Below, piece by piece: positions 19,892-21,704 of a stretch of 64,000 nucleotides of DNA (the stretch's first letter is position 1; each line of letters begins with the position of its first letter). Origin of the DNA: Escherichia coli (GTDB taxonomy: Bacteria > Pseudomonadota > Gammaproteobacteria > Enterobacterales > Enterobacteriaceae). Location: assembly GCF_002854065.1 (NCBI RefSeq), contig NZ_CP024147.1; one strand, 5' to 3'. The notes under the pieces were generated by a model that saw only the letters and a list, made by a program, of their open reading frames with translations, had not been told where the DNA came from and made no database searches. A program made the position numbers and the translations under genes.

Positions 19892-20191
19892 AGCTTTAAT
19901 CCTTATTGTTGATGCTTGTTGTGCCTGAAAATCAGGCGATTCGTCGTTTTAGTAAACAGTACGAACAGATAAACGGTTATTATAATCAACCTGGCTGTGG
20001 GTGGCTATAGTTGCGCTTTCTGTACCGGAGAGAAGCTGCGGTACAGAGCATTTTGCGTTATCTACTCTTGACGCCTGCAAGGGGTAGGTTGGGGAAATAT
20101 TAGACTGGCCCCCTGAATCTCCAGACAACCAATATCACTTAAATAAGTGATAGTCTTAATACTAGTTTTTAGACTAGTCATTGGAGAACAG

Positions 20192-20557
20192 ATGATTGAT
20201 GTCTTAGGGCCGGAGAAACGCAGACGGCGTACCACACAGGAAAAGATCGCAATTGTTCAGCAGAGCTTTGAACCGGGGATGACGGTCTCCCTCGTTGCCC
20301 GGCAACATGGTGTAGCAGCCAGCCAGTTATTTCTCTGGCGTAAGCAATACCAGGAAGGAAGTCTTACTGCTGTCGCCGCCGGAGAACAGGTTGTTCCTGC
20401 CTCTGAACTTGCTGCCGCCATGAAGCAGATTAAAGAACTCCAGCGCCTGCTCGGCAAGAAAACGATGGAAAATGAACTCCTCAAAGAAGCCGTTGAATAT
20501 GGACGGGCAAAAAAGTGGATAGCGCACGCGCCCTTATTGCCCGGGGATGGGGAGTAA
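20192..20557 (+). CDS. insC: IS2 OrfA (InsC)
   Basis: 121-aa helix-turn-helix protein from ATG 20192; A6G slippery site at 20509-20515. Confidence 0.9.
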
Positions 20558-21420
20558 GCTTAGTCAGCCGTTGTCTCCGGGTGTCGCGTGCGCAGTTGCA
20601 CGTCATTCTCAGACGAACCGATGACTGGATGGATGGCCGCCGCAGTCGTCACACTGATGATACGGATGTGCTTCTCCGTATACACCATGTTATCGGAGAG
20701 CTGCCCACGTATGGTTATCGTCGGGTATGGGCGCTGCTTCGCAGACAGGCAGAACTTGATGGTATGCCTGCGATCAATGCCAAACGTGTTTACCGGATCA
20801 TGCGCCAGAATGCGCTGTTGCTTGAGCGAAAACCTGCTGTACCGCCATCGAAACGGGCACATACAGGCAGAGTGGCCGTGAAAGAAAGCAATCAGCGATG
20901 GTGCTCTGACGGGTTCGAGTTCTGCTGTGATAACGGAGAGAGACTGCGTGTCACGTTCGCGCTGGACTGCTGTGATCGTGAGGCACTGCACTGGGCGGTC
21001 ACTACCGGCGGCTTCAACAGTGAAACAGTACAGGACGTCATGCTGGGAGCGGTGGAACGCCGCTTCGGCAACGATCTTCCGTCGTCTCCAGTGGAGTGGC
21101 TGACGGATAATGGTTCATGCTACCGGGCTAATGAAACACGCCAGTTCGCCCGGATGTTGGGACTTGAACCGAAGAACACGGCGGTGCGGAGTCCGGAGAG
21201 TAACGGAATAGCAGAGAGCTTCGTGAAAACGATAAAGCGTGACTACATCAGTATCATGCCCAAACCAGACGGGTTAACGGCAGCAAAGAACCTTGCAGAG
21301 GCGTTCGAGCATTATAACGAATGGCATCCGCATAGTGCGCTGGGTTATCGCTCGCCACGGGAATATCTGCGGCAGCGGGCTTGTAATGGGTTAAGTGATA
21401 ACAGATGTCTGGAAATATAG
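20515..21420 (+). CDS. insD: IS2 OrfB (InsD; DDE transposase, made as OrfAB by -1 frameshift)
   Basis: 301-aa ORF overlapping insC in the -1 frame, as is typical of IS3-family orfB. Confidence 0.9.
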
Positions 21421-21704
21421 GGGCAAATCCAAATATCTTATAGAATCTGACTATGAAACTATTCGTATTAGCTCCGATAAGTTTGATGATGAAAACAGAA
21501 CTGGCGACAACAAGTAGCAGCCTTTCTGATGAATTGACCCCAACTTAATATTGTCAACTATCTTCACAGAATCTCCACAATCTCTTCATTATCAGAATAT
21601 GCACCATGAATAAGATAAAAATACTTTCCATTACTTTGGAGAAACGTATAATCAGCAAAAATGAGAACGATCATTCTCACTAAGTGATAGGCCAGGAGAC
21701 AGAA

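Follow-up and report, generated by a model that had tools for sequence, protein, structure and literature searches.

A complete IS2 with a 5-bp target duplication in the spacer between fabI and the eefRABCD efflux operon of Escherichia coli

The window analysed here, the whole 64-kb stretch of Escherichia coli DNA, carries in this order fabI, a gene for a TetR-type regulator, an RND adaptor, an RND pump, an outer-membrane factor, an MFS pump and sapF. Translation of fabI (19103..19891, minus strand, ATG at 19891) gave a protein identical to K-12 FabI, with neither G93 nor F203 changed. fabI is essential, and FabI is the target of triclosan. On the other side of the spacer, family search and annotation identified an intact eefR (21705..22271, plus strand, ATG at 21705), encoding the TetR-family repressor of eefRABCD and identical to eefR of strain 100416, whilst family searches and the 100416 annotation assigned the genes that follow (22420..29197, plus strand) to eefA (adaptor), eefB (RND pump), eefC (outer-membrane factor) and eefD (MFS pump). 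The locus therefore holds five co-oriented genes between fabI and sapF, all of them as intact in the window as fabI, and the TetR gene is eefR, the first gene of the published eefRABCD operon. In phylogroups B2, D, E, F and G this operon has been reported to lie invariably between fabI and sapF, a place taken by ycjD in phylogroups A, B1 and C (PMC12817139); EefR acts as repressor of both eefABCD and eefR itself, and the five genes are co-transcribed (PMC12482432; PMC12817139).

Between fabI and eefR lies a complete IS2 of the IS3 family (1331 bp; 20101..21431, plus strand), the only copy in the 64-kb window. It shares 1330 of its 1331 bases (99.92% identity) with a K-12 (NCM3722) copy annotated as IS2 family transposase, the sole mismatch, at 20706, being synonymous. 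Sequence reading and a boundary script gave a left end of TAGACTGGCCCCC... and a right end of ...GGGGCAAATCCA; in longer reads of the termini, the element starts with TAGACTGGCCCCCTGAATCTCC and finishes with GGAAATATAGGGGCAAATCCA. The two terminal inverted repeats are imperfect: the left one (IRL; 20101..20142, plus strand) opens with TAGACT, with TA as the terminal dinucleotide on the outward strand, and the right one (IRR; 21391..21431, plus strand) closes with ...CCA and hence with CA-3', features that have been described for IS2 (PMC3219604). The TAGACT terminus of IRL serves the minicircle junction promoter as its Pribnow box (PMC3219604). At 20148..20156 (plus strand) we found TGaTAGTCT, which we take as P-IRL, a weak transposase promoter of the extended -10 type; such a promoter has been described for IS2, with an oligonucleotide given over the corresponding stretch (PMC3219604), and the exact bases are our own assignment.

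Both reading frames of the element are intact on translation and run toward eefR, as the sequence-only reading had noted. insC/orfA (20192..20557, plus strand), which encodes the IS2 TnpA repressor of 121 aa, scored 276 bits against NCBIfam NF006928 (IS2 TnpA; cut-off 229), and insD/orfB (20515..21420, plus strand), encoding the catalytic part, TnpB, of 301 aa, scored 728 bits against NF006918 (IS2 TnpB; cut-off 597). The frames overlap in the manner of IS2, with an A6G slippery site at 20509..20515 (plus strand; motif from PMC3219604) for the -1 frameshift that yields OrfAB, and orfB stops 11 bp short of the end of the element. The IS2 at this position is canonical and probably still active.

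The element is bracketed by two copies of AATAT, the left at 20096..20100 and the right at 21432..21436, and the boundary script found flank identity over exactly 5 bp, with none at 6 bp or more. These coordinates confirm what had been claimed from the sequence alone, namely a complete 1331-bp IS2 between perfect AATAT repeats; the distances of 209 bp to fabI and 273 bp to the TetR gene also hold when counted from the ATGs at 19891 and 21705. We then joined the two flanks with a single AATAT to form an empty-site query of 865 bp and searched for it in 5426 complete E. coli genomes, 2034 of which carry the site uninterrupted and with one AATAT. Because this single-AATAT empty site is found in other genomes, the AATAT repeat represents a genuine target duplication; another IS2 insertion likewise duplicates a pentamer (PMC9783932). 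In strain 100416, from human stool in the Gambia, the empty site is 100% identical, and the window is collinear with that genome over 24.8 kb at 99.96% identity, the IS2 and the second AATAT being the sole structural difference. This near-identity to an E. coli strain also led us to reject a Shigella origin of the window, which had been considered since the junction is found in no complete E. coli genome. The proposal that the insertion arose by simple transposition is borne out by these sequence comparisons.

We next considered how widespread the insertion is. All 5426 complete E. coli genomes lack both the left and the right junction. Across 24 contigs encoding an identical EefR the junction is absent and the empty site is present in every one (24/24), and exact junction 32-mers were found neither in the metagenome collection nor in the species-representative genomes. 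Since neither junction appears in any genome or metagenome searched, the insertion is, as judged from its distribution, recent and private to the sequenced strain or to a narrow lineage. The eefR upstream region is carried by 2042 complete genomes, in 2034 of which the 865-bp region is contiguous; the spacer is therefore seldom disturbed. We also entertained the idea that the fabI-eefR spacer is a hot spot for insertion sequences, and rejected it, the region being broken in only ~8 of the 2042 eefR-bearing genomes.

Several observations were made at the same locus in other genomes. In strain 23CRST031 (locus L003, NZ_AP045800.1, 4172-4931, corresponding to the window from ~21608 onward), homology ends 17 bp before the eefR -35 is reached, and an IS1A lies ~55 bp beyond that end, abutting a 5'-truncated eefB. 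This strain lacks the eefR promoter, eefR, eefA and the beginning of eefB, with IS1A in place of everything from PeefR to the 5' part of eefB, an arrangement suggestive of a deletion associated with IS1. In the draft genome GCA_900499115.1 (locus L010, 4624-4899), an IS1 insA begins 57 bp past the eefR stop codon, and a further contig (L011) ends 24 bp past eefR; an insertion sequence between eefR and eefA, if present, would cut the pump genes off from PeefR. Strain GF43 (locus L018, NZ_CP172127.1, 3193-4019) displays a third fabI-sapF arrangement, in which a gene of the SMI1/KNR4 family stands next to fabI in place of both eefRABCD and ycjD. With the fabI part of the query, seven matches on plasmids were also obtained, and two plasmid matches take in the eefR upstream region, consistent with the reported presence of eefRABCD on some plasmids. 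Finally, eefC (26652-28025) is an intact ORF of 457 aa in the window and is annotated in strain 100416 as a pseudogene with an internal stop; position 27082 is G in the window and A in strain 100416.

To the left of the element, the sequence-only reading had placed the IS2 within the region that must hold the fabI promoter. This placement was not supported. A consensus scan gave as its best match TAGCCA-17-TATAAT (20007..19979, minus strand; 10/12), with a predicted start at ~19972, and the left end of the IS2 is 93 bp away from it. The match falls within DNA shared with K-12: K-12-type genomes align with the window only up to ~20014, with identity from fabI to just past the predicted -35 and patchy similarity farther out. 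The third haplotype, that of strain GF43, has TATAAT at the equal aligned position even though it has diverged from 46 bp upstream of the ATG, and the predicted -10 is thus common to three different fabI upstream haplotypes. Because the best candidate lies 93 bp away and its -10 is kept in all three haplotypes, we place the IS2 outside the predicted fabI core promoter. A genomic SELEX study gives another hexamer pair for fabI, which is found only in K-12 and lies ~300 bp upstream (PMC3946193), and so distal fabI promoters may exist as well.

Variation among 12 other eef-type genomes points in the same direction. The fabI promoter and 5'UTR (19892-20014) have a single variable site in 123 (~1%), as compared to 5 of 86 to the left of the IS2 (20015-20100) and 10 of 184 to its right (21437-21620), such that 5-6% of sites vary in the segments adjoining the insertion point. 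By this measure, no part of the 477-bp fabI-eefR spacer is less constrained than that in which the IS2 sits.

Two further features of the fabI upstream region deserve description. K-12 carries, just upstream of the fabI -35, a FadR-like palindrome, CTCCGGTCGGACCTGGC, matching the consensus at 10/15 positions (locus L002, 2807-2835); eef-type genomes carry CTCCGGTACAGAAAGCGC at this place (window 20008-20050), without the K-12 FadR-like site. A second FadR-like site, ATCTGTTCGTACTGTTT (19954-19970), also 10/15, lies near the predicted transcription start and is common to K-12 and eef-type genomes. Neither candidate fits cleanly the RegulonDB position quoted in PMC8115981, every one of them is at least 70 bp from the IS2, and FadR control of fabI might, from these sites, differ among E. 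coli lineages. The second feature is a stable inverted repeat, (U)CUGUACCG-N11-CGGUACAG(A), at 20018..20048, between the predicted fabI promoter and the IS2; its predicted folding energy is -20.2 kcal/mol (z -2.9) for the plus strand and -15.4 kcal/mol (z -3.1) for the minus strand, and GCAUUUUG follows it in plus-strand orientation. At E<=1, no Rfam family matched 19700-22500, and therefore no known RNA is disrupted.

To the right of the element, the regulatory DNA of eefR is native. The predicted eefR promoter, TTTCCA-16-TATAAT (21625..21652, plus strand; 10/12 in the consensus scan), has its -35 at 193 bp from the right end of the IS2, and transcription from it would be expected to start at ~21659. 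Just downstream of this best promoter match, the pattern TGAGAA-N6-TTCTCA is present as the palindrome TGAGAACGATCATTCTCA (21662..21679), which is exactly identical to the palindrome that EefR was shown to bind by EMSA (PMC12482432). Predicted promoter and operator are both intact and lie at least 193 bp past the right end of the IS2; the eefR promoter and operator have been located within a 129-bp fragment between fabI and eefR (PMC12482432). Given that the DNA to the right of the IS2 is AT-rich (36% GC), we also considered that an IS2 can displace H-NS/silencing or upstream elements. Silencing of eef in E. coli has been argued to be unlikely (PMC12817139), and control has been ascribed to EefR (PMC12482432).

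We then inspected both junctions for outward transcription. The outward -35 of IRR and the TAGACT of IRL together make up the strong minicircle promoter Pjunc, in which a 17-bp spacer is mandatory (PMC3219604), and the same -35 can form fusion promoters with a properly spaced -10 in the flank (PMC3219604; PMC9330008). From the geometry of Pjunc (TAGACT as -10, a 1-bp junction spacer and a 17-bp promoter spacer; PMC3219604), we derived TGGAAA (21410..21415, plus strand), 16 bp from the end of the IS2, as the outward -35, which faces eefR. Comparison of the flanking hexamers gave AATATC at 16-bp spacing, without the conserved final T, ATATCT at 17 bp, which is not -10-like, and TATCTT (21434..21439, plus strand) at 18 bp, a 4/6 match that makes a weak candidate fusion promoter of 8/12 overall. 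The eefR-side flank thus offers no -10 at ~17-bp spacing, and a consensus scan at 9/12 reported no promoter at either IS2 junction. Toward fabI, TGGAGA-16-AATATT (20123..20096, minus strand) spans the left junction as another 8/12 candidate; we found no outward promoter element documented in the literature consulted for IRL, the end that faces fabI. The 8/12 hybrid candidates at the two junctions could have some activity. A scan of the plus strand from 21300 to 21700 revealed no terminator-like site, and since orfB ends 11 bp before the end of the IS2 with no such site after it, transposase transcripts probably run out toward eefR. The sequence-only interpretation holds in part: IS2 is able to activate neighbouring genes through its outward element (PMC9330008; PMC3219604) and is oriented toward eefR here, but neither junction provides a good hybrid promoter.

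Taken together, this analysis suggests that the insertion is a neutral or near-neutral, strain-specific polymorphism, a reading to which we assign a probability of about 0.72. It builds on features observed directly, these being the element, its 5-bp duplication, the matching empty site elsewhere and the unaltered operator and predicted promoter sequences. A canonical IS2 would have transposed recently, and in this strain specifically, into a poorly constrained spacer between two divergent units, with fabI to its left and the eefRABCD efflux operon to its right. Because the promoters and the operator are on native DNA and no well-spaced outward promoter is found at either junction, expression of both fabI and eefRABCD would be expected to be essentially unchanged. 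Slight additional transcription toward eefR might come, at most, from weak read-through starting at the transposase promoter or from the poor hybrid promoter with its 18-bp spacer, and any such transcription would still meet the EefR-bound operator. As far as the sequence tells, a regulatory effect of the insertion is possible but unsupported.

The best-surviving alternative, although an unlikely one, is that the IS2 serves as a mobile promoter of the cryptic eefRABCD operon, with the IRR -35 and TATCTT, or transposase read-through, raising the pump and its repressor partly independently of PeefR. The outward -35 of IRR does face eefR, the TGGAAA-18-TATCTT candidate is present, and nothing resembling a terminator intervenes between the IS2 and eefR. 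Moreover, eefRABCD is one transcription unit whose derepression leads to multidrug resistance in acrB mutants (PMC12482432), and both ampC and acrEF have been activated by IS2 (PMC9330008; PMC9783932). However, the spacer of the candidate is 18 bp, whilst Pjunc is functional only at 17 bp (PMC3219604), and an 8/12 match, frequent by chance, is missing from the 9/12 scan. Distance also argues against it: the IS2 insertions that activate acrEF are 86-90 bp away from the start codon of acrE (PMC9783932), as compared to 273 bp to the eefR ATG here. Finally, P-IRL, the transposase promoter that would feed read-through, has been called weak (PMC3219604), and any upstream transcript must cross the EefR-bound operator and would raise EefR too. 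Less probable again is that the IS2 acts as an adaptive mobile promoter, whether through right-end transcription that makes eefRABCD partly EefR-independent or through a left-junction promoter that raises fabI; were this true, it would represent a natural route by which a wild isolate could become less susceptible to efflux substrates or triclosan.

An effect on fabI expression, and hence on triclosan susceptibility, is to our minds very improbable. It would require a promoter at the left junction, or activating or silencing DNA that the insertion has moved 1.3 kb off. The 8/12 candidate at 20123..20096 spans this junction in the appropriate orientation, triclosan selects for outward promoters upstream of fabI, which increase survival, and overexpression of fabI rescues growth on the drug (PMC7050523). 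Against this, IRL has no outward promoter that we found documented in the literature, the predicted fabI promoter and the 93 bp upstream of its -35 are still native, and FabI itself is wild type; furthermore, K-12-type strains lack all of the DNA past ~20014-20050, yet express the essential fabI gene. That the IS2 has been placed here by an assembly artefact, as a collapsed or misplaced repeat, is scarcely credible: insertion sequence copies are a classic source of misassembly and the junctions occur in no other public sequence searched, but a complete element with a perfect 5-bp duplication of sequence that is single in the empty site bears exactly the mark that real IS2 transposition leaves and that a misjoin is unlikely to yield, and the empty site gives direct evidence of the target duplication.

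On the preferred reading of a near-neutral polymorphism, the direct value of the insertion is small: it provides a clean, private IS2 polymorphism that is usable as a strain or lineage marker, and it shows that a resident IS2 has recently been active. It would matter more if expression were changed, as the neighbours are the triclosan target fabI and the recently characterised, cryptic multidrug efflux operon eefRABCD, and IS2 has been proven to activate acrEF, a silent pump of comparable kind.

Comparison with known systems places the insertion further. With regard to IS activity at the eef locus itself, eefR and a portion of eefA have given way to an IS in S. dysenteriae (PMC12817139). The present case resembles this and the damage in E. 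coli 23CRST031 in that the locus is again visited by an IS, but differs in that nothing is deleted or interrupted. The transposons with outward promoters used in TraDIS-Xpress are likewise mobile elements upstream of fabI; their promoter, however, is strong, induced and directed at fabI, and they are enriched only with induction (PMC7050523), whereas the IS2 turns toward fabI its IRL end, for which we found no outward promoter documented.

The closest regulatory parallels are the activation of ampC by IS2 and of acrEF by IS2 and IS1. As at acrEF, the operon downstream of the IS2 is an RND efflux operon that is normally quiet and has a TetR-type regulator, and it is the IRR end, with its outward -35, that is proximal to the operon. 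At ampC, Jaurin and Normark (1983) reportedly found the end of IS2 between the -35 and the -10, and Kobayashi (2001) is said to have described acrEF as activated by IS2 or IS1. In those systems, the IS end is in or beside the promoter, whereas here it lies 193 bp upstream of an intact predicted promoter and operator, without a -10 at 17 bp and with 273 bp to the ATG; activation is known only for the former. Compared to the K-12 IS2, finally, the element is alike in its length of 1331 bp, its 99.92% identity, its ends, orfA/orfB, the A6G motif and the 5-bp duplication, and differs only in its insertion site and in the synonymous base at 20706. The element is an ordinary IS2 at a new, private position.
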